The notes beneath the pieces were generated by a model. It was not told where the DNA came from. It made no database searches and saw nothing but the letters and a program-made list of their open reading frames with translations. A program made the translations under genes and the position numbers. Shown one piece after another: positions 36,991 to 54,125 of a DNA stretch of 64,000 nt. Every line of letters begins with the position of its first letter. The first letter of the stretch is position 1. Origin of the DNA: Candidatus Marinacidobacterales bacterium (GTDB lineage: Bacteria; Acidobacteriota; Vicinamibacteria; Marinacidobacterales; DATDRI01); assembly GCA_965219415.1 (NCBI GenBank), contig CBDCNP010000002.1, forward strand, positions 576,001 to 640,000, in the 5' to 3' direction.

Positions 36991-37007
36991 CTAAGACAGA
37001 ACAACAC

Positions 37008-37814: not shown

Positions 37815-37892
37815 CAAGCCTGAAAGGCCTGACAGAGCTGACGCGTAACCGCGTTGCAAGGCCGGTAATTTCATCTTAGGAGGATTAGGAAA

Positions 37893-39065: not shown

Positions 39066-39145
39066 CAGGGTGCTGAAAAATTCGCGGCACACTGCGCGAG
39101 GAGCCATCAGCTGTCCCGAAGCCGCTTGCCAGAAGGAACGGGGGG

Positions 39146-39232
39146 GGCCCCGCCGCACTGATGAAGGAGCGAACCCGCGTGGGCCGTCAAACTAGGTCGT
39201 TGCTGAAACTGGACGTGACCAGGCGGCGGGCC
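39146..39232 (+). ncRNA. Hammerhead-like three-way-junction motif, cleavage triplet missing
   Basis: Stem GGCCcCGCCGC/GCGGCGGGCC, CTGATGA (39158-64), stem II, GAAA (39205-08), stem CTGG/CCAG. Confidence 0.3.
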
Positions 39233-39315
39233 GATGAAAGTTCGCCGAGCGAAGAGCGAGGCGCCAAGCGCGCGAACGAGGAGTGAGCGCGCATTGAGCA
39301 TAGGATGAAAGAGTT

Positions 39316-39843
39316 ATGGAAGAATCGACCAAAATTAACGGGTTGGACATTGAGGAGACCCGGGAAGCCATCAAGACCGTAAGCGCCGTGGAGGGGGCAC
39401 CGAAGGCCCCCAAGAAATCACGGTGCAAATGGTTGACCGGTCTCAAATTCAGGACCTACGTACGGAACCACGTCTTCCTCGTCGATGAGCCCGCACACCT
39501 CGCGGGCGAGGATGAAAGCCCTAACTCGATGGAGTATGTGCTGGGAGCCTACGCCGCGTGTTTGGCCACCGGCTTCGTTCTCAACGCCAGCCAGAAGGGT
39601 ATCGAAATCCACAACCTCGAAGTGGCCGTGGACTCGACTCAGAACAACGTATTCACGTTTCTGGGTCTGGGGGGCGAAGGACACGCCGGGTTCGACACTA
39701 TCAACGCCAAGCTCTTCGTTCAGGCCGATGCGGACGAGGCCACGCTAAAAGACGTTTGGGCCCAGACCGTGGACACCTCTCCGGTGCACAACTCTCTGGC
39801 CCGGCCGGTGACCATCAATCCTGAGGTCGAGATCATTCCGTAG
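39316..39843 (+). CDS. OsmC/Ohr-family protein
   Basis: 'VDEPAHLAGEDESPNSMEYVLGAYAACL', 'TSPVHNSL..PV'; single active Cys. Confidence 0.88.
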   Translation: MEESTKINGLDIEETREAIKTVSAVEGAPKAPKKSRCKWLTGLKFRTYVRNHVFLVDEPAHLAGEDESPNSMEYVLGAYAACLATGFVLNASQKGIEIHNLEVAVDSTQNNVFTFLGLGGEGHAGFDTINAKLFVQADADEATLKDVWAQTVDTSPVHNSLARPVTINPEVEIIP

Positions 39844-39915
39844 CTCCTAGGTCAGATTTCGGATCGCCGCCTGGCCTGCCTCGGACCCCCAAGGTCTGGT
39901 CTGCCTGACCCGAAA

Positions 39916-41316
39916 CTACCCTCCGGAAGCCTGGGGAGTGAGGGTGTATCCGAGAGCTTCGGCTGCCTTTTGTAAACCGTTGATGTGGTTTTGGCGAAAA
40001 CGGTCTTCGAAGGCGCGTTCGCCGATATCGATGTAATCGTGGCCATATTTGAGCATGCGGAAGACGAGCTGGGCGAGCTTGCGTGCTGTAGCAAAGACGG
40101 CGGTTTTGCCATCTTTACGGCGAGCAGTGCGGCGATAGTAAGCGCCTAGGGCGGTCTTGGAGCGGGAGAGAGATACAGCGGCCATACGTAAGGCACCGGC
40201 GATGCGATTGGAGCCGGCGCCGTTGCGGCGTTTGGAGAGTTGTTTACCGCCGGAGATAGGGCGACGTGGGGCGAGATGTAGCCATGAGACGAAGAATTTT
40301 TCGAAAGGGAAATCAGAGAGGTCGAATCCGATCTCGGTGAGGACAATGGCGGCGGTGGTTGGACTGATTCCGTCGATCCTGGTGAGGTCGCATCCAGCAA
40401 AACGCCACAGCTCGTTGCGCAGTTCGCTCTCGCCCCGATGCTGCATGTCGTATCGTTTTTGCGGATTTGGATGAGCTGGCACGTTGTGGTGTCTGCGTTG
40501 TGGCGGCTGGAGTTCGATGAGCACTTCAAGGATACGCTGGTCGAACAGTTCGACTTCGGCTTGTAGCGCATCGTAGAGACGCAGAGCCGATGCGAGGTTG
40601 AAAAGATGCTCGTCACGCCAAGTGCCGGTAAGATGCTCGGCGATCTCCTCTTCGCTCTTCTTGCAGCGTTGGTCACGAAATGCAGCCAGCTTTGACGGGT
40701 CACGCTCACCATCAACGATGGCGCGCACGATGAGCATGCCTGTGACGCCGGTAATGTCGGTCACTGCACGATGGACCTGAACGTTCATTTGGTCCAGAGA
40801 TTTCTGTATCCATTGAATAGCTCGACTACACTGCTCGATGAGGCTGCAACGCTGTCGGTGAAGCGAGCGTAGGCGGCAGATCGACTCACCAGGACGAAAC
40901 GAGCCTCGCAACAGACCACAGCTGTGTAACAGCTGCAGCCACTGACAGTCATGCATATCGGTTTTACGCCCGGGGACGTTTTTTAACTGTCGAGCATTTA
41001 CCAGCACCACTTCAAGACCCCGCGATTCAAGCAACTCATAAATCGGAATCCAATAGACGTAGGTGCTTTCCATCGCAACCGATTCGACTCCTTGCTCGAT
41101 GAGCCAATCCCCCATTTGATTCAAAGACGGTGTCGTTGGGGAAAACACCCGCACGTTCACTTTACCGTCCGACAAGGCCGGCCCACATACCCAATGCTCA
41201 CGACTGCCAATATCGATGCCTGCTACCTTCGACCTTGTCACCGGCAGCGATTGCGGCGACAGATTCTTCGACTTCCTACCACTCTTTTTCACGCGCTTGT
41301 GCATCACTGACCTCAC
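39916..41316 (-). CDS. IS110-family DEDD transposase/recombinase
   Basis: 'AGIDIG', 'MESTYVYW', 'KTDMHDCQWL', 'ISGGK' (catalytic Ser), 'ATARKLA'; intact ORF. Confidence 0.92.
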   Translation of the reverse strand: MRSVMHKRVKKSGRKSKNLSPQSLPVTRSKVAGIDIGSREHWVCGPALSDGKVNVRVFSPTTPSLNQMGDWLIEQGVESVAMESTYVYWIPIYELLESRGLEVVLVNARQLKNVPGRKTDMHDCQWLQLLHSCGLLRGSFRPGESICRLRSLHRQRCSLIEQCSRAIQWIQKSLDQMNVQVHRAVTDITGVTGMLIVRAIVDGERDPSKLAAFRDQRCKKSEEEIAEHLTGTWRDEHLFNLASALRLYDALQAEVELFDQRILEVLIELQPPQRRHHNVPAHPNPQKRYDMQHRGESELRNELWRFAGCDLTRIDGISPTTAAIVLTEIGFDLSDFPFEKFFVSWLHLAPRRPISGGKQLSKRRNGAGSNRIAGALRMAAVSLSRSKTALGAYYRRTARRKDGKTAVFATARKLAQLVFRMLKYGHDYIDIGERAFEDRFRQNHINGLQKAAEALGYTLTPQASGG

Positions 41317-41329
41317 ATGTATTTTGTGA

Positions 41330-41490
41330 GTGAAGGCTCCGGCCCGAGATGGCGATTGTTAGGATTCTGACCCTGGGGAGTGCTTCCGTTCAAAGCCTCG
41401 CCAATGATAGGGAGCCGGATCGGACCCAAGCTCGTCCTGGGGCATTAGTGCACCAGTGGTGCTACGGGGTTTAGCTGCCGGGGCCTTCAC
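41330..41490 (-). ncRNA. Candidate IS110 bridge RNA in the non-coding upstream end
   Basis: Closed by a 14-bp IR (41330-43 / 41477-90); contains short copies of both junction sequences. Confidence 0.5.
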
Positions 41491-41540
41491 CGACAACCCT
41501 TTTATCAGCTCAGGTAGTTTCTCGCCTGATAGGGCCGGCC

Positions 41541-42655
41541 TCACGAAGGCCGCCGAAGCTCGACTACACCCTCACTCCCCAGCACTGCGAGAGGTCGTTT
41601 CGGGTCAAGTGCTGTCCAACCGAATCCCCGGCGAACGTACCGGTCTTCGCCGGACGCAGGATCACGTGATCCAAGATTGGAAACGGTCGCACGCTGTAGG
41701 ACTCCAGAGTCTCGGGAAATCATGCCGGCGCTGGCTCGCGGTTCGGTCTGGAAGCCAGACGGTTTTCTCTGAGAACGTCTCTTTAGGGGCAAGGGCTTTT
41801 CGATGACACCCAATGGCCCTTCCCAAGTCAGCCGGTTGGGAGCCCAGCCCTTGACCTTCAATCGCCCTCCGGTGATCGCCGCGTGACAGACCGCGCAGAG
41901 CGTGTGGAGATTCCAGGTCTCATCGGGACCGCCACGAGCCCGCGGAATGATGTGATTCGCGGTTAGAGCGGTTCGATTACTGCACCCGGGCCGGGTGCAC
42001 TTCCATCCGTCCCGCTCCGCGACTTTCCGAACATAGCCACCGTCAGTTTCCGGACCGTCTCCGAATGCAGGCGTTGTTGCATACCCACAAAGCGCCTCCG
42101 CGCACATGAGGTCGAAGACTTCGATGTCGCTCAGTGTTTTCCCCGCCAATCGCTCGAGGGCTTCCCGCGCCTGCTCCCAAGCTTCGACGCGTTCGCCCTT
42201 CGAGAACAAAGAAGAGGGATTTCCTCGTCGTCGGAGGCTGTTTCCTTTTCACTTCCTGCTCGAGCTGACGATTGCTCATGCTGTTACAGCGGTCGAGCCA
42301 CTTGGCCTCGGTCTTCGGTGTCGCGACTTTCACGACTTCCCTCGCCTTGGTCCAAGGAATGTCCCCTCGCCGGAAGGCCTTCTTCAACCTAGGCAACTCT
42401 TCGAAACGCTCCGCCATGTGCAACAGCGAGCGCGTCTTTCGATCCTCGAAGCCGAGACTTTCGCGGGCGTAGTCGACGGTCGAGGCAAAGCCGTACCTGA
42501 GATAAAGCCGTCGGGTCTCGACTTCCTGAAGATAGAAGCACAAGACGGACTCCACGCGGCGATGCACGCGGGCCGCGGCGACGAGGCCCCGATCGACCTC
42601 GCTCGGGGGGAAGACCTTTCTTCATTTCGAGAGCGGCTGCAGCAGACAGGGACAT
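41541..42655 (-). pseudogene. DUF222-like/HNH endonuclease protein, frameshifted
   Basis: 'LYLRYGFASTVDYARESLG', 'IPWTKAREV', HNH 'ERDGWKCTRPGC....HIIPRARGGPDETWNLHTLCAVCH'. Confidence 0.8.
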
Positions 42656-43072
42656 GACACTAACTCCTTTTAAAATGAATGGCTTAACAAGAAATCTTCA
42701 CACTTCAATATAGGAGTATGTTAGGTGAAAGTCAAGAGTATTTAAGTTGTGTAATTATCTGAAAACAAAAGGATTAGAAGAAAAATCGGATGGTGAGAGA
42801 TCTGGGCGTTACCTCTTAACTTGCTGATAAAAAGCCACTTGCCTACTGCTTCGCGTCAAGACCGGATGTGATCGAAGGTCCGAGTCCCCCGAGCCGCCCG
42901 GGGTGTTCTGCTTCCCCTCTGGTCAAGTCCTATCGGCTAGGACAAACCGAAGCTTCCGCTACACCTTCAGTCCCCTATACCTGCTGGACGGTCGTTCCGC
43001 CGCGGCTAGCCTCATGGCAACTCCCCATCTTGGCAGCAAGCCAGTTCAATCTTGTAAAATACCCAGTTGACG

Positions 43073-43966
43073 ATGAAGAACCTGGTTCCACTGCCGTATC
43101 GCCGTGTCTCCGTCCAGCCTTACCAAGGCCAGATGACGGAGCCAGCCATCCGCGCCCACCTGATGGGCCGCGAGACCTATCGGCGCACGGATTTCGTCGT
43201 CCTCAGGCAGGGGCAACAGACCGCGGTCGTCGAGGTCACTGCCCCCGACCGAGAGAGCCTCTTCAGCCCCATCGATTCCGTCCGCATCGTGGCCCTGCCC
43301 GAAACATGTGTCTTCGTCGAAGCCTCAGAGACCGACCCGGCCAACCCGTCCTCCCTCGCCGCCAAGGCGCACGAGCTCGGAATCGAAGGCGAGCAAACAC
43401 TCGTGGTACGCGGCAAGTACGAGCACGTCGGTTTCATTCATCACCCCGAACCAATGGTCATCCGTGTCGTGGAGGTCTCTCCGCCCGAGCCACCCAAATT
43501 GTTCGACCTCGCCCAACGCGTACTCGGTTACGCGGAGCTTCCACCGATCCGGTTGGAGCTCACACGGATCGACCTGATCGAGCTCGCCGAAGGCCACTCT
43601 CCTTCCTCCTTCTTAGTGCCTTGCCGCTCTGGAGGACTGGAAGCGCTCAAGGCGCCGGTGCACTTTCTGGACGAGCGCCCCGAGCGGCACGACTGGACGA
43701 TGATCGGATGCGAACGCAGTTTGCAGTTCCACCGCCATTTCTACGGCGACGAGCCGCCCCGCATAGAGCTCTGCCCTCGCCAACTGGCGGGCAACAACGA
43801 CACACCAACGCTACTCAAATGCTGCCTGCTCGAGTTCGACACCGAGCTCGACGGAAGCACGGTGGCGGCGCCGTGGGGTGCCGACTTGGCGATGGTGGAA
43901 AAGGCCATCCGCCAACTCGTGGCGGTCGCCGAGCCCGCACCCGCCGGCGCATCTAAAGTTCCCTGA
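43073..43966 (+). CDS. Cys-rich hypothetical protein, first gene of the comA operon (possible XcbA-like / metal-binding)
   Basis: Long intact ORF with GC-rich third positions; Cys motifs PCR, GCERS..FH, CP, KCCL; 25 nt upstream of comA. Confidence 0.75.
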   Translation: MKNLVPLPYRRVSVQPYQGQMTEPAIRAHLMGRETYRRTDFVVLRQGQQTAVVEVTAPDRESLFSPIDSVRIVALPETCVFVEASETDPANPSSLAAKAHELGIEGEQTLVVRGKYEHVGFIHHPEPMVIRVVEVSPPEPPKLFDLAQRVLGYAELPPIRLELTRIDLIELAEGHSPSSFLVPCRSGGLEALKAPVHFLDERPERHDWTMIGCERSLQFHRHFYGDEPPRIELCPRQLAGNNDTPTLLKCCLLEFDTELDGSTVAAPWGADLAMVEKAIRQLVAVAEPAPAGASKVP

Positions 43967-43991
43967 CCGCAATCACCGGAGGAAAGCCTTC

Positions 43992-44828
43992 ATGACCAAA
44001 GCCTGGACTGCCATCTTTCCCGAACTGGCGGCCCGCTCGCGCAAGCCGCGCACTCGCGGGGTGACGATGCTCCTCGACAAGTGCCAGGGCCCCTCGGCCA
44101 CCGAAGATCTCTTGGCGATGTCGGGTGACTACATCGACTTCTGGAAGATGTCCTACGGGACATCGGCTCTCCTCGACGATGGTTTCCTACGTCGTAAGAT
44201 CGAAACCATCGGCCAGCACGACATCATCGTGCATCCCGGCGGTACATTGGCCGAATACGCGATCATGCAAGGTGTCTGCCGAGAATACGTCCGACACTGC
44301 CAGACCCTCGGCTTCACCGGCGTCGAGATTTCGGATGGCACCATCGAGCTCGCGCCCGGTGCCCGACGGGATGCGATTCGGTACGCACGGGATCTCGGCT
44401 TAACCGTTGTCACCGAGGTGGGCAAGAAAGACCCCAACGAACAACCTCCGGTGGAGCTACTCGCAGAGCAAGCACTGGCCGACTTCGATTCGGGAGCCTC
44501 CTGGGTGATCGTCGACGCGCGGGAGTCTGGCCGAGGAGTCGGGGTATTCGATGCGGATGGCTCCGTCCGCGAGGACGCGGTGGATGCCATGGTCGACATC
44601 CTAGAAGGCCATCTCGATAAGATGATCTGGGAGACACCGCTCAAGAAACAGCAGGAGTACTTCGTCATTCGCTTCGGGCCGCACATCGGGCTGGGCAACA
44701 TCCAACCGCGCGACGTCCTGGCGCTGGAAGCGATGCGCACCGGGATCCGCTTCGAGACGTTCCACGCTTTTGCCAAGAAGCTCCTCGAGGAAGCCCAGCA
44801 GGCTCGAGAGACGGCGGACGAGGGATAA
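43992..44828 (+). CDS. comA: Phosphosulfolactate synthase (ComA/XcbB)
   Basis: 'RKPRTRGVTMLLDK', 'YIDFWK..YGTS', 'PGGTLAE', 'VEISDGTI', 'TEVGKK', 'ARESG', 'WETP', 'LGNI', 'LEAMRTG.R'. Confidence 0.92.
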   Translation: MTKAWTAIFPELAARSRKPRTRGVTMLLDKCQGPSATEDLLAMSGDYIDFWKMSYGTSALLDDGFLRRKIETIGQHDIIVHPGGTLAEYAIMQGVCREYVRHCQTLGFTGVEISDGTIELAPGARRDAIRYARDLGLTVVTEVGKKDPNEQPPVELLAEQALADFDSGASWVIVDARESGRGVGVFDADGSVREDAVDAMVDILEGHLDKMIWETPLKKQQEYFVIRFGPHIGLGNIQPRDVLALEAMRTGIRFETFHAFAKKLLEEAQQARETADEG

Positions 44829-44837
44829 AGGATCGCG

Positions 44838-46415
44838 ATGGTGTTTGGCGAACCCCCGTCCGACGAGCTCATCCGAACCGCGTACGCACGCGAAGCGGGC
44901 GACACGGCTATCCTTTGTAAGGGGATGAGCCTGGCCGACATCGCCCACGTCGTGGGGCTGGTCGAATCCAAGATCATTCCCCGCCAAGCGGGAGGCGAGC
45001 TCCTGTGGGCATTGCTGGAAATCCATCCTTCACCGCCGATGGATTTTGCTGTCGATCCCGCCCGCGGTGATTCCTACTCCAACCGGGAGTCCTACCTGAG
45101 AATGCTTACCCCCTCGACCGGGTGGCTGTCGGTGGGCCGAGCGAGACGTGAGTCCACGACCACCGGTTATCGAATCACCGTCCGAGAGCGGCTGCTGAGC
45201 TTGGCCGGCGCACTCGGCGACTGCGCTACGGCGGCACTCGAGCAATGTGACGCGCATCGAGCGACTCTCTTCCCCGACTACACCTACCTGCAGCCGGCTC
45301 AACCGACGGTGTTCGCGCATTACCTGCTCACGTTCGTCTACCCAATGCTCCGGGACCTCGAGCGTCTCGGGGGCGCCTTCGCGCGTACCAACGTTTCGCC
45401 GGCCGGGTGTGGGAGCGTCAACGGAAGCCGACTCCCCTTGGACCGCGAAGCGCTGTCCGCCATGCTCGGCTTCGATCGCCCCATCCCGCATGCACGCGAC
45501 GCCATGTGGCAGGCGGACGGTCCGATCGAAAACGCCGCCCTCATCACTGGAGCGCTGGTCAACCTCGACCGCTTGGCCGAAGACCTGCAGATCTTTTCGA
45601 CATCGGAGTTCGGGCTCGTCGAGTTGGCCGACCGCCACGCGCGCGCGAGCGTGATCATGCCGCAGAAGAAAAACCCGTACTCGCTCGCCTATCTCCGCGG
45701 GCTCGCCGGGGCCTCCATCGGCACTCTCGCTGCGATGGCTGCGGTCGCGAAGACACCTTCCGGACAGATCGACAATCGCATGTTCGCCTATGGCGACGTA
45801 CCACGGGCGCTCGATCACGCGGCGGACGCAGCACGCTTGATGGCCGACGTGCTCCGAGGGATCACGGTGAAGACGGATGTCGCCGAGCGTCGAGCCGCTC
45901 AAGACTTTCTCGGTGCGACCGATTTAGCGGAAGTCATCATGATCGAGTGCGAGATCGACTATAAGACGGCGCACCGCATCGTGGCTCGGGCCATCCGCGA
46001 AGCGCTCGACTCGGGCGAATCGGGGTTGTCCGTGAAACGGCTGGAAGCGAGCGCCGAAGCCACCGTTGGAAAACAGCTCGGTCTCTCGAAGAACAGAATT
46101 CGCGAATCGCTCGACCCGGCGAGTATCGTCGCGACACGCAGCGGCATCGGTGGCGCAGCGAGCGAATCGGTGGGTGAGATGATCGCCGAATGCAGGAAGG
46201 GCCTGAAGGAAAATGAAACGTGGCGTCTCACCACGGGAAGGAAGCTCGTCGAGGCCGAAACTCGGCTGGGAATGAAGGCCACGGTACTGAAGATCGTGCC
46301 CGCCGAGGGGGACGGCTCATCTGGAGCCGAGCGAGCCGAATCGGATTCTTGGGAAAAGGAGTTCGAAGATCTTCCCAAGATGCCTCCGGGGCGCCGCCGG
46401 TTTCCAGCCGAATGA
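44838..46415 (+). CDS. Argininosuccinate-lyase-like (aspartase/fumarase superfamily) enzyme, candidate XcbC
   Basis: 'YTYLQPAQP', 'SPAGCG', 'RLAEDL', variant signature 'SVIMPQKKNP', 'TDLAE'; follows comA. Confidence 0.85.
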   Translation: MVFGEPPSDELIRTAYAREAGDTAILCKGMSLADIAHVVGLVESKIIPRQAGGELLWALLEIHPSPPMDFAVDPARGDSYSNRESYLRMLTPSTGWLSVGRARRESTTTGYRITVRERLLSLAGALGDCATAALEQCDAHRATLFPDYTYLQPAQPTVFAHYLLTFVYPMLRDLERLGGAFARTNVSPAGCGSVNGSRLPLDREALSAMLGFDRPIPHARDAMWQADGPIENAALITGALVNLDRLAEDLQIFSTSEFGLVELADRHARASVIMPQKKNPYSLAYLRGLAGASIGTLAAMAAVAKTPSGQIDNRMFAYGDVPRALDHAADAARLMADVLRGITVKTDVAERRAAQDFLGATDLAEVIMIECEIDYKTAHRIVARAIREALDSGESGLSVKRLEASAEATVGKQLGLSKNRIRESLDPASIVATRSGIGGAASESVGEMIAECRKGLKENETWRLTTGRKLVEAETRLGMKATVLKIVPAEGDGSSGAERAESDSWEKEFEDLPKMPPGRRRFPAE

Positions 46416-46439
46416 CCGCTCCCGTCAGAGCCTAACGTC

Positions 46440-47819
46440 ATGCCATCTCACATTTCCGATTCGCTGATCTACCGGGGTTCATGGGGAACCGAGGAGACGC
46501 GTGCGATATTCGACGACGTGCCCCGAACCCGCGCGTGGCTCGAGATCCTGGCGGTGCTCGCGGAAAGCCAAGCGGAGGTGGGTCTCATCCCCGCCGACGA
46601 TGCCCAGAAAGTGGCGCGCGCCTGCCGAGAGATGACGCTCGACGCCGAGTTCTTCGAGGAGGTCCGCAAGGGTTTCGAGGAAACGAATCACACCACGCTC
46701 GGCCTCATTCGCGCCGTCCAGAAGCGTTGCCCGGAAGGGTCCGGCGAATGGGTCTACTACGGTGCCACCGTGCAAGACATCGCCGACACCTGGACCATGA
46801 TGGCGGTCGCGCAAGTCTGGTCCATCGCGTTCCGAGAGTCGAGAGCGCTCGAAGAGAATCTTCTTCGACTGGCGGAGACACACAAAAACACGGTCATGGC
46901 CGGTCGCACGCACGGCCAGCCGGGACTACCTATCACCTTCGGTTTCAAGGCAGCGGTTTGGGCGAGCGAAACTCGACGCCACATCGCGCGCCTCAAAGAC
47001 ATTAGACATCGCCTCGGAGTGGGGCAACTTGCGGGCGGCGTAGGCAGCATGTCCTCGTTGGGCCCGCAGGCGTTCACGCTGCAGGAAAAGTTCTGTTCTC
47101 GTCTGGGGCTTCAATCGCCGGATATCTCATGGACCACCGCGCGGGACGTTCTGGTGGAGTGGTTCCAGCTGCTCACTTTGATATCAGGTACCGCGGACAA
47201 GATGGGGCATGAGATCTACAACCTGCAGCGTCCCGAGATCGGCGAGGTCAGTGAAGGTTTCGTACCGGGAACGGTGGGGAGCATCACCATGCCACACAAG
47301 CGTAACCCCGAGATCGCGGAGCACCTGGGAACGCTGGCAAGAGTGATCCGACACAACACGGCTCTCCTGGCTGAATCTCAAGTGCACGACCACGAGCGGG
47401 ACGGACGGGCTTGGAAATCGGAGTGGGCGGTTCTCGCCGAGACCTCGATGGCGGCGGCGAAATTGCTCGAGTTAACCAACACAATGACCGAACATCTCGA
47501 CGTCCACGCCGACCGGGCGCTCGCTAATCTGGAAGCGAGCCAAGGCTTCGTGCTGTCAGAAGCCGTCATGCTGAAGCTTGCGGAGTATGTTGGCAAGCAA
47601 AGTGCCCACACGCTGGTGTACGAGACCGCGATGAAGGCACACGACGAGGGGCGTCCGCTAAAGGACGCCATTCTGAAGAATGATGCCATCTGCAAGCACC
47701 TGTCCGCGGAGGCCATCGAGGATCTGTTCGACTACCGGCGACATGCGGGTTTCTGTAGCGAGCAAGTCGATCGGGTGCTGGAGCGGGCGAGGAAGGAGAG
47801 GGAGAGCGACTCGGAATGA
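46440..47819 (+). CDS. Adenylosuccinate-lyase-like enzyme, candidate XcbD
   Basis: 'GATVQDI.DT', 'GRTHGQ..LPITFG.K', variant signature 'GSITMPHKRNP', 'HERD', C-terminal ADSL domain. Confidence 0.85.
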   Translation: MPSHISDSLIYRGSWGTEETRAIFDDVPRTRAWLEILAVLAESQAEVGLIPADDAQKVARACREMTLDAEFFEEVRKGFEETNHTTLGLIRAVQKRCPEGSGEWVYYGATVQDIADTWTMMAVAQVWSIAFRESRALEENLLRLAETHKNTVMAGRTHGQPGLPITFGFKAAVWASETRRHIARLKDIRHRLGVGQLAGGVGSMSSLGPQAFTLQEKFCSRLGLQSPDISWTTARDVLVEWFQLLTLISGTADKMGHEIYNLQRPEIGEVSEGFVPGTVGSITMPHKRNPEIAEHLGTLARVIRHNTALLAESQVHDHERDGRAWKSEWAVLAETSMAAAKLLELTNTMTEHLDVHADRALANLEASQGFVLSEAVMLKLAEYVGKQSAHTLVYETAMKAHDEGRPLKDAILKNDAICKHLSAEAIEDLFDYRRHAGFCSEQVDRVLERARKERESDSE

Positions 47820-48235
47820 AAACCTATTTCTACATCGGGCTGGCACTGATTCCACTCACCTTCGGAGCGTGTGGCAACGGAGCCGGCTCCAAGAGTGCCG
47901 AAGCCAACATCAAACCCCTCCCTATCGGCAACCCGGCAGACGGAGAAAGCGTCTTCATGGGTACGTGCATCAAGTGCCACGGCAAAGATGCAACCGGAAT
48001 CGAAGGTTCAGGAACGAACCTGACCATCAGCGATTTCGTCAGAAATCATGCGGATGCCGAGTTGGTGGACTACATCAAGACCGGACGCCCGATGAACGAC
48101 CCACTCAACACGACGGGCATCGCCATGCCCCCGTACGGCGCCAATCCGATGCTAACCGATCAGGATCTCGCAGACGTCGTTTCGTACCTCAGGACCGTCC
48201 TTAGAACCTCGACCATGGAAAACAACGACAAGTGA
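47816..48235 (+). CDS. Monoheme cytochrome c, probable lipoprotein
   Basis: Lipobox-like FGAC; CIKCH heme motif; distal 'AMPPYG'; ATGA overlap with the upstream lyase. Confidence 0.85.
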   Translation: MKTYFYIGLALIPLTFGACGNGAGSKSAEANIKPLPIGNPADGESVFMGTCIKCHGKDATGIEGSGTNLTISDFVRNHADAELVDYIKTGRPMNDPLNTTGIAMPPYGANPMLTDQDLADVVSYLRTVLRTSTMENNDK

Positions 48236-48251
48236 CGAAGAGACAACCAAT

Positions 48252-49247
48252 ATGTCGACACCCTCTCGTTTCGAGCTAGCCATTCTACCTACACCCCTCG
48301 TCGAGGCCTCGCGTTTATCGCGAGCTCTCGAGGGTCCCCGAATCCTTATCAAGCGCGACGACCTGACGGGTTTCGGTTTCGGTGGCAACAAAGTACGTGG
48401 ACTCGAGTATTCCATCGCCGACGCCACCGCCAAAGAAGCCGATGTTGTCGTCACCGGTGCGGGACCGCAATCGAATCACATCCGCGCCACCGCGGCCGCG
48501 GCGCGGGCAGCGGGGCTCGATGTGGTCGCCGTCATGCACGGCGAGCGACCCGCCGAGACGCAGGGCAATCTTCTTCTCGATCAATGGCTAGATGTCGAGA
48601 CGCGATTCACAAATGATCCCGACCGCAGCCTCTTGGATCAAAAGATCGAGGAAGTCGCGGAGGAGCTCCGGCAATCGGGGCGACGACCGTATGTCATTCC
48701 TCGGGGAGGTTCTTCGGCGATCAGTGCCTGCGGTTACGTGCAGTGTGCCCGCGAATTGGGAGACCAGCTCGTAGATCTAGGTGCTCGACCGCACTGGCTG
48801 ATCCTGGCCACCGGAGGCGGCGGCACGCATGCGGGCCTCCTCGCCGGTTCGAAGATCTACGATGCGCCGTATCGCATTCTCGGTGTCACCGTAAGCCGCC
48901 CGGCCGATGAGTGCGAGGAGCGGATCGCACACCTGGCCCGCGAGGCGGCACAGCTCTTCCGACCTCAAGGGGAAGCCATCCACATCACCCCCGACGACAT
49001 CTCGGTCCGCGACGGTTTTATCGGTGACGGGTATGGGATCCCCTCACCTGAGGGCATCGAAGCGATCCGCCTGCTGAGCCGGACAGAGGGGTTGTTCTTG
49101 GATCCGACTTACACCGGTAAGGCCATGGCGGGGCTCATCGGCGAGATCCGATCGGGGCGCATTAGAAAAGGCGAGACGGTCGTCTTCGTTCACACCGGCG
49201 GAGAGCCTGCCCTCTTTGCCCACCCGGAGATCGCGACGCGTTCATGA
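48252..49247 (+). CDS. PLP-dependent D-cysteine desulfhydrase/ACC deaminase family protein, candidate XcbE
   Basis: 'PTPL', 'IKRDDL...FGGNKVR', 'QSNH', 'TEGLFLDPTYTGK', 'FVHTGG'. Confidence 0.9.
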   Translation: MSTPSRFELAILPTPLVEASRLSRALEGPRILIKRDDLTGFGFGGNKVRGLEYSIADATAKEADVVVTGAGPQSNHIRATAAAARAAGLDVVAVMHGERPAETQGNLLLDQWLDVETRFTNDPDRSLLDQKIEEVAEELRQSGRRPYVIPRGGSSAISACGYVQCARELGDQLVDLGARPHWLILATGGGGTHAGLLAGSKIYDAPYRILGVTVSRPADECEERIAHLAREAAQLFRPQGEAIHITPDDISVRDGFIGDGYGIPSPEGIEAIRLLSRTEGLFLDPTYTGKAMAGLIGEIRSGRIRKGETVVFVHTGGEPALFAHPEIATRS

Positions 49248-50326
49248 AGAAGAGCCTGCCCGCTGCGACGTACCTGACTGCCACGCTCTTACTAGTCTTA
49301 CTCACAGGGCTCACCGGCGGCGCGCCGCGGGAAGAGCCTCACGCCATCTGGGAAGCCGACAACCCGATCCAGCCGATCCCCGCGAGTCCTCTGGGCATAG
49401 ATATACGGCTCCATCGCCTGAAGGACCCCCCCACTCCCGAAACGGTGCGACTCGGTCGATGGCTTTTTTTCGATGAACGACTCTCTGCCGATGGGACGGT
49501 CTCCTGCGGGACCTGCCATCGTCCGGAGAACGCGTTTTCCGAGCCGAAACCGGTGTCGACCGGAGTTCATGGGCAAACGGGAACCCGCAAGGCCCCGACG
49601 ATCGTAAACCTGTCGAGAAGCCTCTACCCATCTCTCTTTTGGGACGGTCGAGCCGCAACGCTCGAAGCACAGGCTCTGCTCCCGATCGTCAATCCGATCG
49701 AAATGGGAAACAGCGTGGAGGCGGCTCTCGAAACACTTCGCTCCATCGAGGGTTACCGGAAGTATTTCGAGGAAGCCTTTGGATCACGCGAGGTCACCCC
49801 ACAACGCGTAACACGTGCCATCGCCGATTACGAGAGGACACGACGGAGTGGCAACTCGCCTTGGGACCGATGGAGCGCCGGAGATGCGAGCGCGCTTTCC
49901 GATGCGGCGCAGTTGGGAAGGCAAATCTTCTTTGGAAGGGGACGCTGCACGCGTTGCCATAACGCGCCGGATTTCACCGACGACGAGTTCCACAACGAAG
50001 GCATCGGATGGGTTCCCGAGACACAATCCTTCCTCGACGAGGGTCGCTTCGCGGTGAGCAAATTGGGCACCGATCGGGGCGCGTTCAAGACTCCCACTCT
50101 ACGGGACGTCGGCCTCCACCCGCCCTTCATGCACGACGGTTCCATCGCAACCCTCCGAGAGGTCGTTGAACACTACAACCGAGGGGGAAACCCCAATCCC
50201 TACCTGGATCCCGTTATCGAACCGCTCGACCTGAAGGAGCCGCAGCTCGAAGGGCTCGTCGCGTTCCTCGAAGCGCTCGCCGGCGAAAGCTACCGGGACG
50301 AGGCGCCCGCAACTTTCCCCAAATGA
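49244..50326 (+). CDS. Diheme cytochrome c peroxidase/MauG-family protein
   Basis: Two CxxCH motifs (CGTCH, CTRCH), 'FWDGRA', 'NPIEMG', 'FKTPTLR', 'MHDGS'; ATGA overlap. Confidence 0.9.
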   Translation: MKKSLPAATYLTATLLLVLLTGLTGGAPREEPHAIWEADNPIQPIPASPLGIDIRLHRLKDPPTPETVRLGRWLFFDERLSADGTVSCGTCHRPENAFSEPKPVSTGVHGQTGTRKAPTIVNLSRSLYPSLFWDGRAATLEAQALLPIVNPIEMGNSVEAALETLRSIEGYRKYFEEAFGSREVTPQRVTRAIADYERTRRSGNSPWDRWSAGDASALSDAAQLGRQIFFGRGRCTRCHNAPDFTDDEFHNEGIGWVPETQSFLDEGRFAVSKLGTDRGAFKTPTLRDVGLHPPFMHDGSIATLREVVEHYNRGGNPNPYLDPVIEPLDLKEPQLEGLVAFLEALAGESYRDEAPATFPK

Positions 50327-50434
50327 TCGACTGAACGCGCGCGCCTCGCGGTCAACCTCCTATTTGACCGATGGAAGCCCGAAAAATAGAATACGCCCGC
50401 CCAAGCAAAGGATTTAAGGAGAGGAAAACCCACG

Positions 50435-53400
50435 ATGAACAACCCCCACAATCACCGAACCGCCTTCATCGTCGCTCTGCTGCTGGTCGCGGTGTCGCTC
50501 AACGCCGCTGCCGAGTCCTATGATCCGAACGTTTACCAAAGCCTGGAGTGGCGTCTCATTGGTCCGCACCGGGGCGGCCGCGTGACAACGGCGGTAGGCG
50601 TTCCCGGACAAGAAAACGTCTACTACCAGGGGGCCACCGGTGGCGGCGTTTGGAAAACCACAGATGCCGGACTCTCCTGGAAGAACATCTCCGACGGTTT
50701 TTTCAAGACCGGCTCGGTGGGCGCGATCGCCGTAGCGCCGTCCAATCCCAATGTCCTCTACGTAGGCATGGGAGAGGTCTGCATCCGGAGCAACTTCTCG
50801 CACGGAGACGGGGTCTACAAATCGACCGACGCCGGCAAAACATGGACCCATATCGGGCTCTCCGACTCCCGCCAGATCGGCCAGATCCGCATCCATCCTG
50901 AAAACCCTGACCTGGTCTACGTCGCGGCACTGGGCCACGTCTTCGGTCCCAATGAGGAACGAGGAGTCTTTCGCTCCAAGGACGGGGGGAACAGCTGGGA
51001 GAAAATCCTTTACATAAATGACAAGACCGGCGCGGTCGACCTGAGCCTGGACGTCACGAGACCCGACGTCATCTACGCAGCCATGTGGCAAGTCATTCGA
51101 AAACCATGGGGAATCCTGCCGCAAGGGCCGGGAAGTGGTATCTACAAAACGACGAACGGCGGAGATTCCTGGGAAGAGCTCACCGGCGGATTGCCGGGGA
51201 CGGATCTCGGTAGGATTGGTGTCTCGGTCTCTCCCATCAATCCCAACCGAGTCTGGGCGCTGGTCGAAGCCGACGGCGGCGATCTTTTTCTTTCCGACGA
51301 CGCCGGCGCCAATTGGTCTATGGTGAACCACGACTTTCACCTGCAACGCCGACCCTACTATTACGGCCACATCTATGCCGACTCTCAGGAGGTCGACACG
51401 GTCTACGTCCTCACCTCTCCCTTCATGAAGTCGATCGACGCGGGAAAATCCTTCGAGCACGTCGAAGTGCCCCACGGGGACAACCACAACCTTTGGATCG
51501 CTCCCGACAACAACAAACGCATGATCAACGCCAACGACGGTGGCGCCAACGTTTCCTTCGACGGAGGCAAGAGTTGGAGCCGAGTCGATAACCAGCCTAC
51601 CGCTCAGTTCTACTGGGTCATCACCGACGACCGATTCCCCTACCGCGTCTACGGTGCCCAGCAAGACAACACCACCGTCTCCATTGCCAGCCGGACCGCA
51701 ACTCCCGGAATTGCGGCGAGCGATTGGTACGCAGTGGCGGGCGGCGAGAGTGGTTACATTGCTCCCAAACCGGGAGACCCGGACGTCACCTACGGTGGCA
51801 GCTATTGGGGATTTATGACCCGTCACGATCGCCGCAACGGTGAAAACCGCGATGTTTCCCCTTGGCCGGCGCGGCCCATGGGGCGGGTGGGAGCAGGACT
51901 CAAGTACCGTTTCAACTGGACGTATCCGATTGTGATCTCGCCGCATGACCCCAACACCGTCTACGTCGGGGCAAACGTTTTGTTCCGCTCCACGAACGAA
52001 GGGCAGACCTGGGACGCAATCAGCCCCGACCTAACTCATGACGACAAGAGCAAACAGCAGCTGGCTCGACTCTCCGACTTCTACTGCACGATCACTTCCA
52101 TCACCGAGTCGAAGCTGCAAAAGGGTTTGCTCTGGGTGGGGTCCGATGACGGGAGGGCCCACCTGACCCGGAATGGAGGGCGAGACTGGCTCGAGGTCAC
52201 ACCTCCCGAAATGGAAGCGTGGAGCCGCATCAACCTGATCGAGTCCTCGCCTCATGAGGCTGGCTCGGCGTACATGGCGGTGAACCGCTACCACCTCGAC
52301 GACTACCGACCGTACATCTACAAGACGAAGGACTTCGGGCAAAGCTGGAAATTGGTCGGGAAAGGCATCGCCGAAGATGCGTTCGTAAGAACGGTGCGCG
52401 AAGATCCCGAAAGGCGGGGGCTCCTCTACGCCGGTACTGAAACGGGGGTCTATGTCTCTTGGGACGACGGAGAGAACTGGCAATCGCTGCAACGCAACCT
52501 GCCCGTTGTGCCGATTACCGACCTCGCGGTCAAGAACGATGACCTAGTCGCCGCCACTCAAGGCCGCGCCTTCTGGATCCTGGATGATCTAACCGCACTG
52601 CATCAGCTCACCCCCGACGCCGCCGCTTCTCCCGTATTTCTTTTCGAGCCGCGCGCGGCCTACCGCGTGAGAAGGGGCCGCTCGTTTCTCCGGGACCCCA
52701 ACGTCGGCCAGAATCCCCCCGACGGCGTCATTGTGGACTTTCTGCTTCAAGAGGGTTCAGACGAAGCGAGCCTCGAATTTCTAGATGCCGATGGCACCAT
52801 CATAAAGACATTCTCGAGCTCGGACGAGGCGTCGAACGTGACCGCGGAAAAAGGGCTCAATCGTTTCGTTTGGGATCTGCGCTATCCCGATGGATCCGAT
52901 CTCACAAATGGCAGCCACCTGTTCGGCGGCAACCTCCGTGGGCCCATGGCCGTCCCGGGCATTTATCGGGTCCGCCTAACCGCGGCGGGTGAAACGAAAA
53001 GTGCTTCTTTCGAGATCAAAAAAGATCCGAGGGTAGCTGCCACCCGCGAAGATCTTCAGGCACAATTCGACTTGCTCATAGAGGTCCGCGACGGTGTGAG
53101 CGATGCCCACCAAGCCGCGAACAAGATACTCGCCGTGAAAAAACGTCTTCAGGATGTATCGCCTGGCAACGAAAATATAGACAAGCGGTTGAAGGAGGTC
53201 GACGGGAAGCTAACGGCAGTCCTCGACGAACTGGTGGAGTTTCGCTTCCGCGGCATCGACGACCAGATGCTCGTCTACCCGCTGCAGCTGAATGCAAAGA
53301 TCGCATCTTTACAGAGAGTGGTCGCGAGCGCCGAACATCGACCCACCGATCAGTCGGTGGATGTCTTTAGAGAGCTACGGTCTCAGCTCGACACGCAGCT

Positions 53401-53506
53401 CAGCAGGGTCGACGCCATCATGGCGAACGACGTCAAGGCGCTGAACCGATTGCTCAGAGACAAGGGCCTCCGCGAAGTGAGCACCGACCGGGCCGAGCCG
53501 GAGTGA
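50435..53506 (+). CDS. Secreted VPS10/BNR-repeat (sortilin-like) glycosyl-hydrolase-like protein
   Basis: Signal peptide; many Asp-box repeats (KTTDAG.SW, KSTDAGKTW, RSKDGG.SW); 'WRLIGP.RGGR'. Confidence 0.88.
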   Translation: MNNPHNHRTAFIVALLLVAVSLNAAAESYDPNVYQSLEWRLIGPHRGGRVTTAVGVPGQENVYYQGATGGGVWKTTDAGLSWKNISDGFFKTGSVGAIAVAPSNPNVLYVGMGEVCIRSNFSHGDGVYKSTDAGKTWTHIGLSDSRQIGQIRIHPENPDLVYVAALGHVFGPNEERGVFRSKDGGNSWEKILYINDKTGAVDLSLDVTRPDVIYAAMWQVIRKPWGILPQGPGSGIYKTTNGGDSWEELTGGLPGTDLGRIGVSVSPINPNRVWALVEADGGDLFLSDDAGANWSMVNHDFHLQRRPYYYGHIYADSQEVDTVYVLTSPFMKSIDAGKSFEHVEVPHGDNHNLWIAPDNNKRMINANDGGANVSFDGGKSWSRVDNQPTAQFYWVITDDRFPYRVYGAQQDNTTVSIASRTATPGIAASDWYAVAGGESGYIAPKPGDPDVTYGGSYWGFMTRHDRRNGENRDVSPWPARPMGRVGAGLKYRFNWTYPIVISPHDPNTVYVGANVLFRSTNEGQTWDAISPDLTHDDKSKQQLARLSDFYCTITSITESKLQKGLLWVGSDDGRAHLTRNGGRDWLEVTPPEMEAWSRINLIESSPHEAGSAYMAVNRYHLDDYRPYIYKTKDFGQSWKLVGKGIAEDAFVRTVREDPERRGLLYAGTETGVYVSWDDGENWQSLQRNLPVVPITDLAVKNDDLVAATQGRAFWILDDLTALHQLTPDAAASPVFLFEPRAAYRVRRGRSFLRDPNVGQNPPDGVIVDFLLQEGSDEASLEFLDADGTIIKTFSSSDEASNVTAEKGLNRFVWDLRYPDGSDLTNGSHLFGGNLRGPMAVPGIYRVRLTAAGETKSASFEIKKDPRVAATREDLQAQFDLLIEVRDGVSDAHQAANKILAVKKRLQDVSPGNENIDKRLKEVDGKLTAVLDELVEFRFRGIDDQMLVYPLQLNAKIASLQRVVASAEHRPTDQSVDVFRELRSQLDTQLSRVDAIMANDVKALNRLLRDKGLREVSTDRAEPE

Positions 53507-53560
53507 CCGACGGTCTGGCCACGCGATGAAGATCTTGATAACCTTGCCGGAATTCCCACC

Positions 53561-54034: not shown

Positions 54035-54125
54035 CGACGCCTTTCGGGAAGGCATGAGACGGCGACTGCCCTTTCAATCGACCTAGAGTGAGTCTCTCGA
54101 ATTGTGCTAGCATATACCCCGCCTT

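Follow-up and report, generated by a model that had tools for sequence, protein, structure and literature searches.

An xcb-type coenzyme M biosynthesis operon of a separate clade, next to genes for a MetE-like protein and thiol-redox proteins, in an acidobacterial genome

In bacteria, coenzyme M (CoM) has so far been tied to one job, namely the carrying of alkene-derived epoxides. What, then, could CoM do in a bacterium in which no alkene or epoxide pathway is detected? This question is raised by a six-gene operon at positions 43073-49247 of a 64,000-nucleotide stretch of DNA (the window; positions 576,001 to 640,000 of contig CBDCNP010000002.1, assembly GCA_965219415.1). An earlier note, made from the letters of the window, had described a complete-looking xcbBCDE-type CoM operon in an apparently acidobacterial genome. 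Here the operon, the larger block to which it belongs and the related loci are described. The account which we favour is that of an intact CoM operon in a separate xcb clade, where the epoxide genes have been replaced by genes for thiol methyltransferases, thiol-redox proteins and sulfur-transfer proteins, and where CoM may have a role in S-methyl chemistry; taken as a whole, this account seems fairly probable.

The genome searched consists of 8.05 Mb in three contigs and is estimated to be 96.3% complete and 8.45% contaminated. The operon is located on a chromosome-sized contig, and the GC content of the window shows no anomaly. The acidobacterial label of the host is taken from its nearest relative (locus L009), a metagenome-assembled genome (MAG) titled Candidatus Marinacidobacterales (Acidobacteriota, Vicinamibacteria), with which the window shares 84-89% DNA identity over aligned blocks of ~14 kb, genes outside the cluster included.

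The xcb operon and its enzymes

The six genes, xcbA, xcbB/comA, xcbC, xcbD, a cytochrome c gene and xcbE, are all intact and lie tightly packed on the + strand (Table 1). Overlaps of 4 bases are found at the xcbD/cytochrome c junction and between xcbE and the following mauG-like gene; the remaining gaps are 9-25 bases. The closely spaced comA, ArgH-like, PurB-like, cytochrome c and D-cysteine-desulfhydrase-like genes listed in the earlier note are all present. The gene starting at 43073, however, is xcbA and not comA, as is clear from its score with the XcbA model NF052538. This means that the four genes of the claimed "complete" xcbBCDE set are indeed there, but that a fifth was overlooked: with xcbA, which had not been listed, the cluster, xcbABCD-cytochrome c-xcbE, has one more gene of the pathway than had been claimed. 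XcbA is the fifth and final enzyme of the pathway and makes CoM from sulfoethanethioaldehyde, as described for Xanthobacter autotrophicus Py2 (PMC9457059).

The xcb and xec genes of Py2, taken from the annotated plasmid record pXAUT01, were used as queries against the whole genome by tblastn. Each of the five Py2 Xcb proteins matched exactly once, all at the 43073-49247 locus, with identities of 62, 48, 43, 50 and 47% for XcbA to XcbE in near full-length alignments; in other words, the cluster is not a chance pattern. The combination and order of the genes also match those of Py2 xcbABCDE (Xaut_5051-5055), as had been noted for xcbBCDE: the same five families occur in the order A-B-C-D-E. For all five proteins, the top NCBIfam model was that of their own family, and XcbA, XcbB and XcbD scored above its cut-off. 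To our knowledge, the XcbA family is known from the CoM pathway only.

The earlier note had asked whether the two lyases might be the housekeeping ArgH and PurB, as the only genomic copies. Separate argH (TIGR00838, 523.3 bits, cut-off 279.5) and purB genes (TIGR00928, 550.5 bits, cut-off 326.2) were found elsewhere in the genome, and so was a separate fumC. The window lyases, on the other hand, scored under the equivalog cut-offs of these housekeeping models (argH model 257.9 bits; purB model 292.6 bits). In a tree of 34 lyases (quick maximum likelihood, midpoint root, long branches flagged), the window XcbC and XcbD were placed inside the clades holding the Py2 and JS614 proteins, and the ArgH and PurB of the genome itself were outside.

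The residues around the catalytic positions are in line with this placement; the following motifs are our own alignment observations and not published signatures. The loop of XcbC reads R-A-S-V-I-M-P-Q-K-K-N, compared with GSSLMPQKRN in the ArgH encoded elsewhere in the genome. Py2 and JS614 XcbC have changed in the same way, so that the pattern of the XcbC clade is R-A/T-S...PQK.N against GSSxMPxKxN of ArgH. The loop of XcbD, GSITMPHKRNP, is the same in Py2 and JS614, compared with GSSSMPHKRNP in the genome's own PurB. For the protein taken as XcbE on its best-scoring model, the gene stands at the conserved place in the operon, and the lysine of the motif GGNK(V/I)R is invariant in all five aligned XcbE sequences. 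In XcbA, five Cys residues are invariant in 11 aligned sequences. The window operon thus shares with Py2 the families, the gene order, the loop changes, the Cys set of XcbA and the lysine of XcbE.

By homology to the Py2 pathway (Wu et al. 2022, PMC9457059), XcbB would add sulfite to phosphoenolpyruvate (PEP), XcbC would eliminate phosphate to give sulfoacrylate, and XcbD would add L-cysteine to sulfoacrylate. XcbE, a pyridoxal 5'-phosphate (PLP) enzyme, would release sulfoethanethioaldehyde from 3-sulfopropionyl-cysteine, and the [2Fe-2S] protein XcbA would reduce this to CoM. The sulfite for XcbB might be supplied from thiosulfate by a rhodanese encoded upstream. The Py2 enzymes make CoM in vitro (PMC9457059), and judging from the homology, CoM is very likely made in this host as well.

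Epoxide genes and the two xcb clades

The alkene-oxidation genes, which the earlier note had pointed out to be missing near the operon, were looked for in the whole genome (~96% complete). No orthologue of XecA/EtnE was found in the genome: the best match, 23% identical, is the window's own MetE-like gene, which lies outside the XecA clade. No 2-ketopropyl-CoM oxidoreductase/carboxylase (2-KPCC, XecC) was found in the genome either, the best tblastn matches being 22-25.6% identical when true orthologues in other loci gave 54-70% with the same query. The Py2 XecD and XecE queries matched many short-chain dehydrogenase/reductase (SDR) genes at 33-43% identity among the eight listed for each, with best values of 38% and 43%. 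The best XecD/E match, at C3:388535-389260, is far from the window and is indistinguishable from ordinary SDRs. For soluble di-iron monooxygenases (PF02332), the single match in the genome was one of 25.3 bits at C3:747154-747624, ~107 kb from the window. This candidate, a 218-residue open reading frame (ORF) without an NCBIfam family, was rejected. No match to the PF02461 Cu-monooxygenases was found in the genome, an absence that is weak because the control genomes were silent too. P450 genes are present. A standard alkene pathway elsewhere in the genome, which would have lowered the novelty of the locus, was not detected by these searches.

Related loci were gathered by a scan for XcbA in one genome per species (66 loci) and a scan for XcbD in metagenomes (33 further loci). 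All 99 loci (numbered with the prefix L) were annotated by tblastn with one reference set consisting of window, Py2 and Anaerolineales proteins, and part of them also by Pfam and NCBIfam. They were split into two groups by identity to the window, at least 66% for XcbD or, failing that, at least 63.5% for XcbA, which gave 42 closer and 57 distant loci. Many loci are short, and the references for the partner genes were drawn from the closer group; the counts below are to be read with this in mind. Loci in which 3 kb or more can be seen upstream of xcbA, 16 of the closer and 50 of the distant ones, are called informative, and counts among the informative closer loci are given in brackets.

The two groups differ in their partner genes. 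The distant loci are nearly all from Pseudomonadota, many of them methanotrophs and Burkholderiales, and XecA at 60% identity or higher was found in 44/57 of them (44/50 informative), XecC in 30/57 and XecD/E in 35/57. The closer loci comprise nine genomes, namely one Candidatus Marinacidobacterales MAG and eight MAGs of Anaerolineales, Anaerolineae or Promineifilaceae, and 33 unlabelled metagenome contigs. Among them, XecA orthologues at this threshold were found in 0/42 (0/16). They carry instead genes for MtaA-like URO-D proteins in 12/42 (10/16), a corrinoid protein in 11/42 (9/16), the RACo activase in 10/42 (9/16), MtrH in 15/42, a PduO-type adenosyltransferase in 13/42, an AhpD-like protein in 9/42 (8/16), OsmC in 7/42 (6/16), ccoN/O in 5/42 (5/16), and the pair of MetE-like protein and rhodanese in 4/42 (4/16). 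Each of these was found in 0/57 distant loci. Judged from sequence similarity and these partners, a distinct xcb clade is common to Anaerolineales (Chloroflexota) and a small acidobacterial lineage. The proposal of the earlier note that CoM may serve a purpose other than alkene oxidation gains support from the missing epoxide genes and from the lack of XecA in all 42 related loci, and a use of CoM outside the classical epoxide pathway is quite likely.

In several Anaerolineales loci, the MtrH gene lies between xcbB and xcbC. The best models for the three URO-D proteins of such loci are MtaA/CmuA and methylcobalamin:CoM methyltransferase (132-210 bits, under the cut-offs), and that for the corrinoid protein is of the MtbC/MtgC type. 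A His-x-Cys motif and a later Cys are kept in all ten aligned MtaA-like URO-D proteins; a His-Cys-Cys ligand set is taken as a mark of S/Se-methyltransferases in a preprint (PMC10418091). In L011, the genes run RACo, MtaA-like, corrinoid protein, adenosyltransferase, rhodanese, MetE-like, OsmC, xcbA, xcbB and MtrH. By analogy, this string resembles a soluble counterpart of the methanogen methyl-tetrahydromethanopterin:CoM methyltransferase together with a MesA-like methionine synthase; MesA has been predicted to draw methyl groups from MtrA (Price et al. 2021, PMC7857596). In the Anaerolineales relatives, S-methyl transfer might proceed through the MtaA-like enzymes, the corrinoid protein and MtrH.

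The block seems to have come to the acidobacterial lineage from elsewhere. The XcbC and XcbD proteins of the acidobacterial loci nest among Chloroflexota-labelled sequences in the lyase tree, and the XcbA family was found in one of 401 sampled genomes of the window's phylum, that one being the window's own. A close MetE-like gene was found in one of 301 sampled genomes of the order to which L011's genome belongs, again that genome itself. Together these findings suggest transfer from Chloroflexota into Acidobacteriota, with the direction taken from a tree whose root is given by the other clade alone. The acquisition was not recent, and the genes were kept intact, since in L082, L083, L101 and L009 the block is found between the same flanking genes at 72-87% DNA identity: the window is 72-77% identical to L082 and L083 and 86-87% identical to L009 and L101, with the same xcb gene order. 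Divergence of this extent with all frames still open suggests purifying selection on the xcb genes.

Two loci, L099 and L100, are of a third type. They carry a distant XecA-like gene, an aldehyde dehydrogenase, an SDR, two CoA-transferase subunits, a 54% XecC-like reductase and xcbA-E. This looks like a cluster of the ethene/vinyl-chloride type and, by its sequences, the nearest epoxide-linked relative of the window's clade. They also carry an ADP-forming acyl-CoA synthetase and OsmC, and their XcbD is 69% identical to that of the window. In the Anaerolineales-type operons L012, L015, L084-L090, L092, L093, L095, L098 and L103, extra genes are placed between xcbC/xcbD and xcbE; these encode a cytochrome P450, a 594-residue protein without a family, a DUF1326 protein (13/42 loci) and a member of the PpoB2 "copper chaperone" family (7/42). 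Genes for DsrE2 and a TusA-DsrE fusion, a sulfur-relay signature, lie directly upstream of ccoN in L014 (4495-6421) and L091 (689-1498).

The conserved block and possible roles of CoM

In L082 and L083, the genes ccoN-ccoO-AhpD-like-rhodanese-MetE-like-OsmC-xcbA-B-C-D-cytochrome c-xcbE form an uninterrupted series in which OsmC ends where xcbA begins; in L082, OsmC occupies 6048-6623, and the start of the window xcbA aligns at 6623. The window is colinear with these two loci over 34129-39843 and 43069-49234. The xcb operon is the downstream half of this larger conserved block, from which it is split here by a copy of an IS110-family insertion sequence (IS) and an HNH element. The surroundings of the operon do carry information: the conserved block 4-9 kb upstream belongs with it.

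The MetE-like protein of this block consists of the catalytic domain only. Its top solved structure is 3RPD (E 4e-28), which has been assigned to MesD (Price et al. 2021, PMC7857596). The zinc ligands are kept in the motifs HVC, LEY and DCG (HxC, E, C), and so are the homocysteine-position motifs GS, DGE and DEP (S, E, D); the roles of these residues in MetE are given in PMC7857596. XecA, on the other hand, has GN and DGR at two of the homocysteine positions, in other words Asn and Arg in place of Ser and Glu. In a tree of 26 MetE-family proteins, the window protein falls in a clade of its own with those of L009, L082, L083 and L011, to which it is 98, 91, 91 and 78% identical and which lie at the same position. 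Long branches split this clade from XecA, from the Burkholderiales paralogues that are sister to XecA, and from the two other MetE-like genes of the genome, and identity to every MetE-family comparison protein used was below 30%. No NCBIfam methionine-synthase model reached its cut-off, the best being PRK04326 (201.1 of 406). The genome contains a full-length MetH (1696.3 bits). Together with the single occurrence among the 301 genomes, this means that the MetE-like gene is not widespread in that order and that methionine synthesis does not depend on it. MesX (DUF1852, PF08908) was not found in the genome, a weak absence given that the control genomes were silent. From its sequence, we read the MetE-like protein as an accessory enzyme, similar to the core methionine synthases but of a type not yet described, which probably binds homocysteine or a similar amino-acid thiol.

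A second MetE-family gene was also observed in Burkholderiales-type loci (L025, L027, L028, L029, L031, L032, L036 and L042), ~3 kb upstream of xcbA and ~30% identical to XecA. With the gene of L099 it forms the sister clade of XecA, and it has DGA where XecA has DGR and MetE has DGE.

The remaining upstream genes encode an oxidase and proteins of thiol and sulfur chemistry. The ccoN-like frame is open from 33682, with homology from ~34129 and colinearity with L082/L083 from 34117-34129. The protein is 64-87% identical to the ccoN products upstream of xcbA in L014, L082, L083 and L091, and the ccoO-like protein is 73-90% identical to those of L014, L082, L083, L087 and L091. No second C-family (cbb3-like) oxidase was found in the genome by tblastn at 1e-6. 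The cytochrome c gene is found between xcbD and xcbE, at 50% identity or higher, in 8/42 related loci and in 0/57 of the proteobacterial type, and the genome has a single copy each of ccoN, ccoO, this cytochrome c gene and the xcb genes. The cytochrome c of the operon may be the third subunit of the ccoNO oxidase. Its best model is ccoP, at 41.3 bits against a cut-off of 179.95. No ccoP adjoins the ccoNO genes of the window, which travel with the xcb block across two phyla. The AhpD-like protein shows weak NCBIfam matches to the AhpD-domain families of arsenosugar biosynthesis and ArsM association. The ORF of the rhodanese opens at 36678, and the likely start at 37008 is inferred from homologues of 268-271 residues in L082 and L011 and from the sequence.

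For this genome, S-methyl transfer is the most likely role of CoM, although we put it forward tentatively; the core-MetE-like enzyme might, for example, pass a methyl group between CoM and homocysteine. It is possible, if on balance doubtful, that the Anaerolineales, and the acidobacterium by inheriting the same block, make CoM as a methyl carrier, as a soluble bacterial counterpart of Mtr/MtaA chemistry. MtrH would then move methyl groups between methyl-folate and the corrinoid protein, and the MtaA-like Zn enzymes would move them between the corrinoid protein and CoM. The MetE-like protein, as a fifth kind of core methionine synthase, would tie this methyl pool to homocysteine, and the acidobacterial version would be a reduced form keeping only the MetE-like step.

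Several observations weigh against this reading. The MetE-like protein keeps the homocysteine-binding Ser, Glu and Asp, unlike the CoM-binding XecA, so that it probably does not use CoM as thiol substrate in the way that XecA does. Its linkage to xcb comes from two independent lineages only, the acidobacterial one (window, L009, L082 and L083) and L011, among the loci compared, and homologues at 69-93% identity make up more than 120 metagenomic protein clusters. It is for the window's own host that the methyl-transfer reading has the least support. The window and L009 genomes each have a single match to the URO-D family (96.9 bits in the window genome; 97-102 bits overall), a family that also matches in nine control genomes. 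RACo was not found in either of these genomes, and tblastn gave no match to MtrH, DUF6951 or MtaA-like proteins in them; a source of methyl-CoM is thus not visible in the window genome. A redox or persulfide role would suit the OsmC, AhpD-like and rhodanese genes at least equally well. Against the account as a whole, XcbC (569.5/575) and XcbE (398.6/450) lie just below the curated NCBIfam cut-offs. In addition, the split into two groups of loci was made by comparison with the Xcb proteins of the window itself, and the loci are mutually related and not independent.

Among the other explanations, the one to be taken most seriously, while somewhat unlikely, is that CoM is a low-molecular-weight protective thiol or persulfide carrier in place of glutathione, with the MetE-like protein a passenger. 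OsmC and the AhpD-like protein would reduce peroxides or disulfides with CoM, the rhodanese (TusA-DsrE in the relatives) would load CoM with sulfane sulfur or release sulfite, and ccoNO with the cytochrome c would tie the block to micro-oxic conditions. This would agree with the presence of the OsmC and AhpD-like genes in both the corrinoid-type and the window-type loci and in none of the other clade, with the OsmC gene that follows the cluster in L099, and with the TusA-DsrE genes that precede ccoNO in L014 and L091. Directly upstream of the L082 ccoN there is also a gene for a metallo-β-lactamase-fold protein with weak similarity to GloB and sulfur dioxygenase (Blh), 79% identical to window 24780-25499. 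The genome gave no match to glutathione synthetase (PF02955) or to E. coli-type GshA (PF04262), in a search that did not extend to the GCS2-type ligase, mycothiol, bacillithiol or ergothioneine. However, a thiol carrier leaves unexplained the position of MtrH inside the xcb operon, as well as the MtaA-like, corrinoid and RACo genes on the flanks of the operon, which are seen in 9-10 of 16 informative loci. The occurrence of XcbA in a single genome of the 401 also speaks against it, since the phylum lineage as a whole manages without CoM.

Less probable still is a hidden epoxide pathway, in which CoM would trap epoxides or small electrophiles through non-orthologous enzymes, with the MetE-like protein as alkyltransferase and a P450 or another oxygenase as epoxide maker. 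The epoxyalkane:CoM transferase (XecA) is itself a MetE-family Zn enzyme, the MetE-like protein, encoded in the conserved block that holds the xcb genes, is the best genomic match to it, and P450 genes are available. Methanotrophs with etnE are likewise without an alkene monooxygenase (PMC11507031). Nevertheless, we regard such a pathway as improbable: the low identity of the MetE-like protein to XecA, its place outside the XecA clade and its homocysteine-type residues all argue against it, as do the lack of a 2-KPCC-like reductase and the match of the dehydrogenase queries to generic SDRs. No XecA occurs in the related loci, and the 54% XecC-like gene is confined to the sister-type L099 and L100. 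An equally small chance may be given to the operon yielding no CoM here, either by drift to a related sulfonate product or because the block, acquired horizontally, has been silenced by the IS110/HNH insertion. The scores of XcbC and XcbE would allow for this, the insertion parts xcbA from any promoter that served the upstream genes, and promoter-like sites were not above chance (6 sites vs 4.1 expected). On the other side, none of the five frames is broken and their products can be aligned with the Py2 proteins over almost the full length, the gene order is kept in L082, L083, L009 and L101 despite their divergence, the clade-specific residues of the catalytic loops are retained, and L009 has an insertion at the same place with intact xcb genes. 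To take the two lyases and the PLP enzyme for an ordinary ArgH, PurB and DcyD that lie next to comA by chance can hardly be right. The Pfam assignments taken by themselves are generic (Lyase_1, ASL_C2, ADSL_C and PALP), but the separate argH and purB score well above their cut-offs, the window copies score far higher on the Xcb models, the tree puts the lyases with Xcb proteins of Py2 and JS614, and XcbA is adjacent.

Known systems, mobile DNA and flanking genes

The favoured account, CoM synthesis in a separate clade with methyltransferase-like and thiol-redox neighbours, can be set against the known systems. The Py2 cluster lies directly after xecA, xecC, xecD and xecE on a plasmid, which also carries the alkene monooxygenase genes (PMC9457059), and no orthologue of xecA or xecC and no alkene monooxygenase gene was found in the window genome, with matches to generic SDRs only for xecD and xecE. 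The window, in contrast, has a cytochrome c gene between xcbD and xcbE, has the ccoNO, AhpD-like, rhodanese, MetE-like and OsmC genes upstream, and belongs to a separate clade. The etnE-linked CoM clusters of methanotrophs (Methylohalobius crimeensis and Methylocystis; PMC11507031) are similar in that they, too, have CoM genes without an alkene monooxygenase; many loci of this type were recovered here, e.g. L020, L026, L049 and L058. These clusters, however, keep etnE/xecA (64-80% identical to the Py2 protein) and, in most cases, genes for the reductase and dehydrogenases, and the window's clade has none of them. According to the same paper, from 2024, methanogens and aerobic alkene users are the only organisms in which genes for CoM biosynthesis are known. 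Archaeal-type comABCDE genes have been described in "Anaeropigmentia" (Desulfobacterota) and 14 other bacterial genomes, also without the propylene pathway, and the phyla listed there include Acidobacteriota and Chloroflexota (bioRxiv 10.1101/2021.03.22.436540). Those genes were recognized through KEGG orthologies and are stated to be distinct from xcbC/D/E, whereas the window genes are of the bacterial xcb type.

The Anaerolineales loci match the make-up of the type 1 mlp clusters of a preprint by Kountz and Balskus (PMC10418091), with three URO-D/MtaA-like proteins, a corrinoid protein and RACo beside xcbA. The feature set is present in L010, L013, L015 and L016, and a type 1 mlp cluster (at least two MtaA-like proteins, corrinoid protein and activase) was not found in the window genome. 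To this make-up the Anaerolineales loci add xcbABCDE and MtrH. The three mlp clusters detailed in the preprint are without a folate methyltransferase, and methyl-selenide or methyl-sulfur substrates are favoured for them. No mention of CoM biosynthesis, xcb, phosphosulfolactate, Chloroflexota/Anaerolineales or Acidobacteriota was found in a term search of the preprint.

With the core methionine synthases MesA-MesD (PMC7857596; core-MetE is described also in PMC7005905), the window MetE-like protein shares the single catalytic domain, the four zinc ligands and the three homocysteine residues. The MetE-like gene of L011 is beside genes for a corrinoid protein and RACo, which fits the corrinoid donors predicted for MesA-C (PMC7857596). 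The window protein differs from MesA-D in that it is under every model cut-off, that MesX was not found (the control was silent), and that no corrinoid partner is seen in this genome. Its conserved linkage is to CoM biosynthesis and not to the Wood-Ljungdahl pathway.

The xcb pathway itself is already known. What is new is the separate clade of 42 xcb loci without XecA and with methyltransferase and thiol-redox neighbours; in the literature consulted (main texts, not supplements, and with Partovi et al. 2018 not covered), no report was found that places xcb genes in Chloroflexota or Acidobacteriota, or that describes them next to genes of the MtaA-like or MetE-like kind. An xcb clade without epoxide genes would open a second bacterial use of CoM, in lineages of the soil, sediment and groundwater type (Anaerolineales and Vicinamibacteria-like). 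If methyl transfer is the role, bacterial methyl cycling of C1 compounds, sulfur and selenium would be linked to a cofactor thought diagnostic of archaea, the mlp-type methyltransferase clusters would gain a candidate thiol substrate, and a methyl donor or acceptor would be suggested for the undescribed type of core methionine synthase. Methyl-CoM would then occur in aerobic or micro-aerobic bacteria without methanogenesis or alkene metabolism. In practice, CoM or comA in metagenomic or metabolomic data can no longer be taken simply as a sign of methanogens, off-target effects may be expected of CoM analogues such as bromoethanesulfonate, and xcb-carrying bacteria may feed CoM to methanogens that need a supply.

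Table 1. Features of the xcb operon, the conserved upstream block and the insertions in the window
Feature	Positions	Strand	Evidence
ccoN-like subunit I, divergent C-family (cbb3-type) haem-copper oxidase	34129-35508	+	Pfam COX1 272.5 bits; NCBIfam ccoN 288.4 vs 583
ccoO-like mono-haem subunit II	35505-35990	+	Pfam FixO 96.7 bits; NCBIfam PRK14487 98.6 vs 218
AhpD-like (carboxymuconolactone decarboxylase family, CMD) thiol-redox protein	36494-36922	+	tblastn 90% identity to L082 CMD gene (Pfam CMD 40.8 bits)
Two-domain rhodanese (thiosulfate/3-mercaptopyruvate sulfurtransferase type)	37008-37814	+	Pfam Rhodanese, two stretches, 137.4 bits; PRK11493 133.9 vs 250
Core-MetE-like protein, putative Zn thiol methyltransferase, catalytic domain only, 390 aa	37893-39065	+	Pfam Meth_synt_2 113.2 bits
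OsmC-like protein	39316-39843	+	Pfam OsmC 63.3 bits
IS110-family insertion sequence (transposase 39916-41316)	39904-41543	-	NCBIfam transpos_IS110 248.5 bits, cut-off 140
HNH-endonuclease element (ORF 41541-42209) and AT-rich spacer	41541-43040, 3' limit approximate	-	Pfam HNH 37.2 bits
xcbA, [2Fe-2S] reductase family by homology	43073-43966	+	NF052538 446.5 bits (cut-off 150); Pfam DUF7714
xcbB/comA, phosphosulfolactate synthase family (PEP + sulfite)	43992-44828	+	TIGR03849 298.8 bits (cut-off 280); Pfam ComA 273.1 bits; ATG start read from translation
xcbC, ArgH-like lyase (phosphate elimination to sulfoacrylate, by homology)	44838-46415	+	NF052535 569.5 bits (cut-off 575); argH model 257.9
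xcbD, PurB-like lyase (cysteine addition to sulfoacrylate, by homology)	46440-47819	+	NF052536 652.5 bits (cut-off 600); purB model 292.6
Cytochrome c, 139 aa, mono-haem, lipoprotein-type signal	47816-48235	+	Pfam Cytochrome_CBB3 42 bits, Cytochrom_C 39.9 bits; one CxxCH; N-terminus ...LTFGAC
xcbE, D-Cys-desulfhydrase-like PLP enzyme	48252-49247	+	NF052537 398.6 bits (cut-off 450); next best CuyA 332.3
MauG/CCP-like di-haem peroxidase	49244-50326	+	Pfam CCP_MauG 190.2 bits; two CxxCH; overlaps xcbE stop

The IS110 copy is missing at the same place in L082 and L083, and the genome contains ten matches to it of at least 1 kb at ~99% identity or higher, this copy included. The NCBI model is named "RNA-guided transposase"; no Rfam family was found in or beside the element. 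The HNH element shows 81% DNA identity with L009 (8488-9687), is missing in L082 and L083, and has an 83% paralogue on contig C1. Its ORF, of 222 residues here and 372 in L009, weakly resembles the HNH portion of IscB, and the element is followed by a 180-bp AT-rich stretch (42650-42830). Contigs from the sequencing runs X2, X7, X10 and X12 were inspected over 38800-44200: none spans the IS110/HNH insertion, those of X2 and X7 bridge the OsmC/IS110 boundary, and these four runs gave no evidence of an IS-free form of the locus. The depth over IS110 was ~10x higher in X2, which fits a multi-copy element. L009 has Mutator-family and rve-type transposase genes inside its own OsmC-xcbA gap, and Mutator-family and ISL3-family transposase genes adjoin at 20290-22536 of the window. 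With the IS110 copy, this means that the region is rich in mobile DNA.

Signals of regulation were few. The 22 public sequencing runs returned for 43073-50326 include none of RNA. No Rfam family reached the gathering score in the window, L082, L083, L011 or L016, and none had E <= 1 within 32500-44000, so that there is no riboswitch clue to regulation. A scan of 32500-51000 was near chance for promoter-like sites (the counts given above) and for terminator-like sites (20 vs 16.0 expected).

Downstream of the operon, a second insertion relative to L082/L083 covers 49235-54102 and carries the mauG-like gene, a gene for a 1023-residue BNR/sortilin protein and a DnaJ-domain gene. The mauG-like gene was rejected as a core member of the block: it follows xcbE in one of the 42 related loci only (L101) and is missing in L009, L082 and L083. 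It has a 58% paralogue on C1. The 1023-residue BNR/sortilin-Vps10 repeat protein (50435-53506) shows a weak match to the F510_1955 glycosylhydrolase model; it is found at 85% in L009 and is missing in L082 and L083. Past 54102, the colinearity resumes with genes for ApaG, a weakly methyltransferase-like protein, a pseudouridine synthase (RluD-like) and a CinA-like protein, presumably a housekeeping flank. The class-I methyltransferase-like ORF (54611-55438) was considered as a CoM methylase and rejected, being part of this flank also in L082 and L083. At 13826-16474 on the - strand, the window further encodes an 882-residue protein in which a Ser/Thr kinase domain is joined to an FGE-sulfatase (formylglycine-generating enzyme-like) domain.

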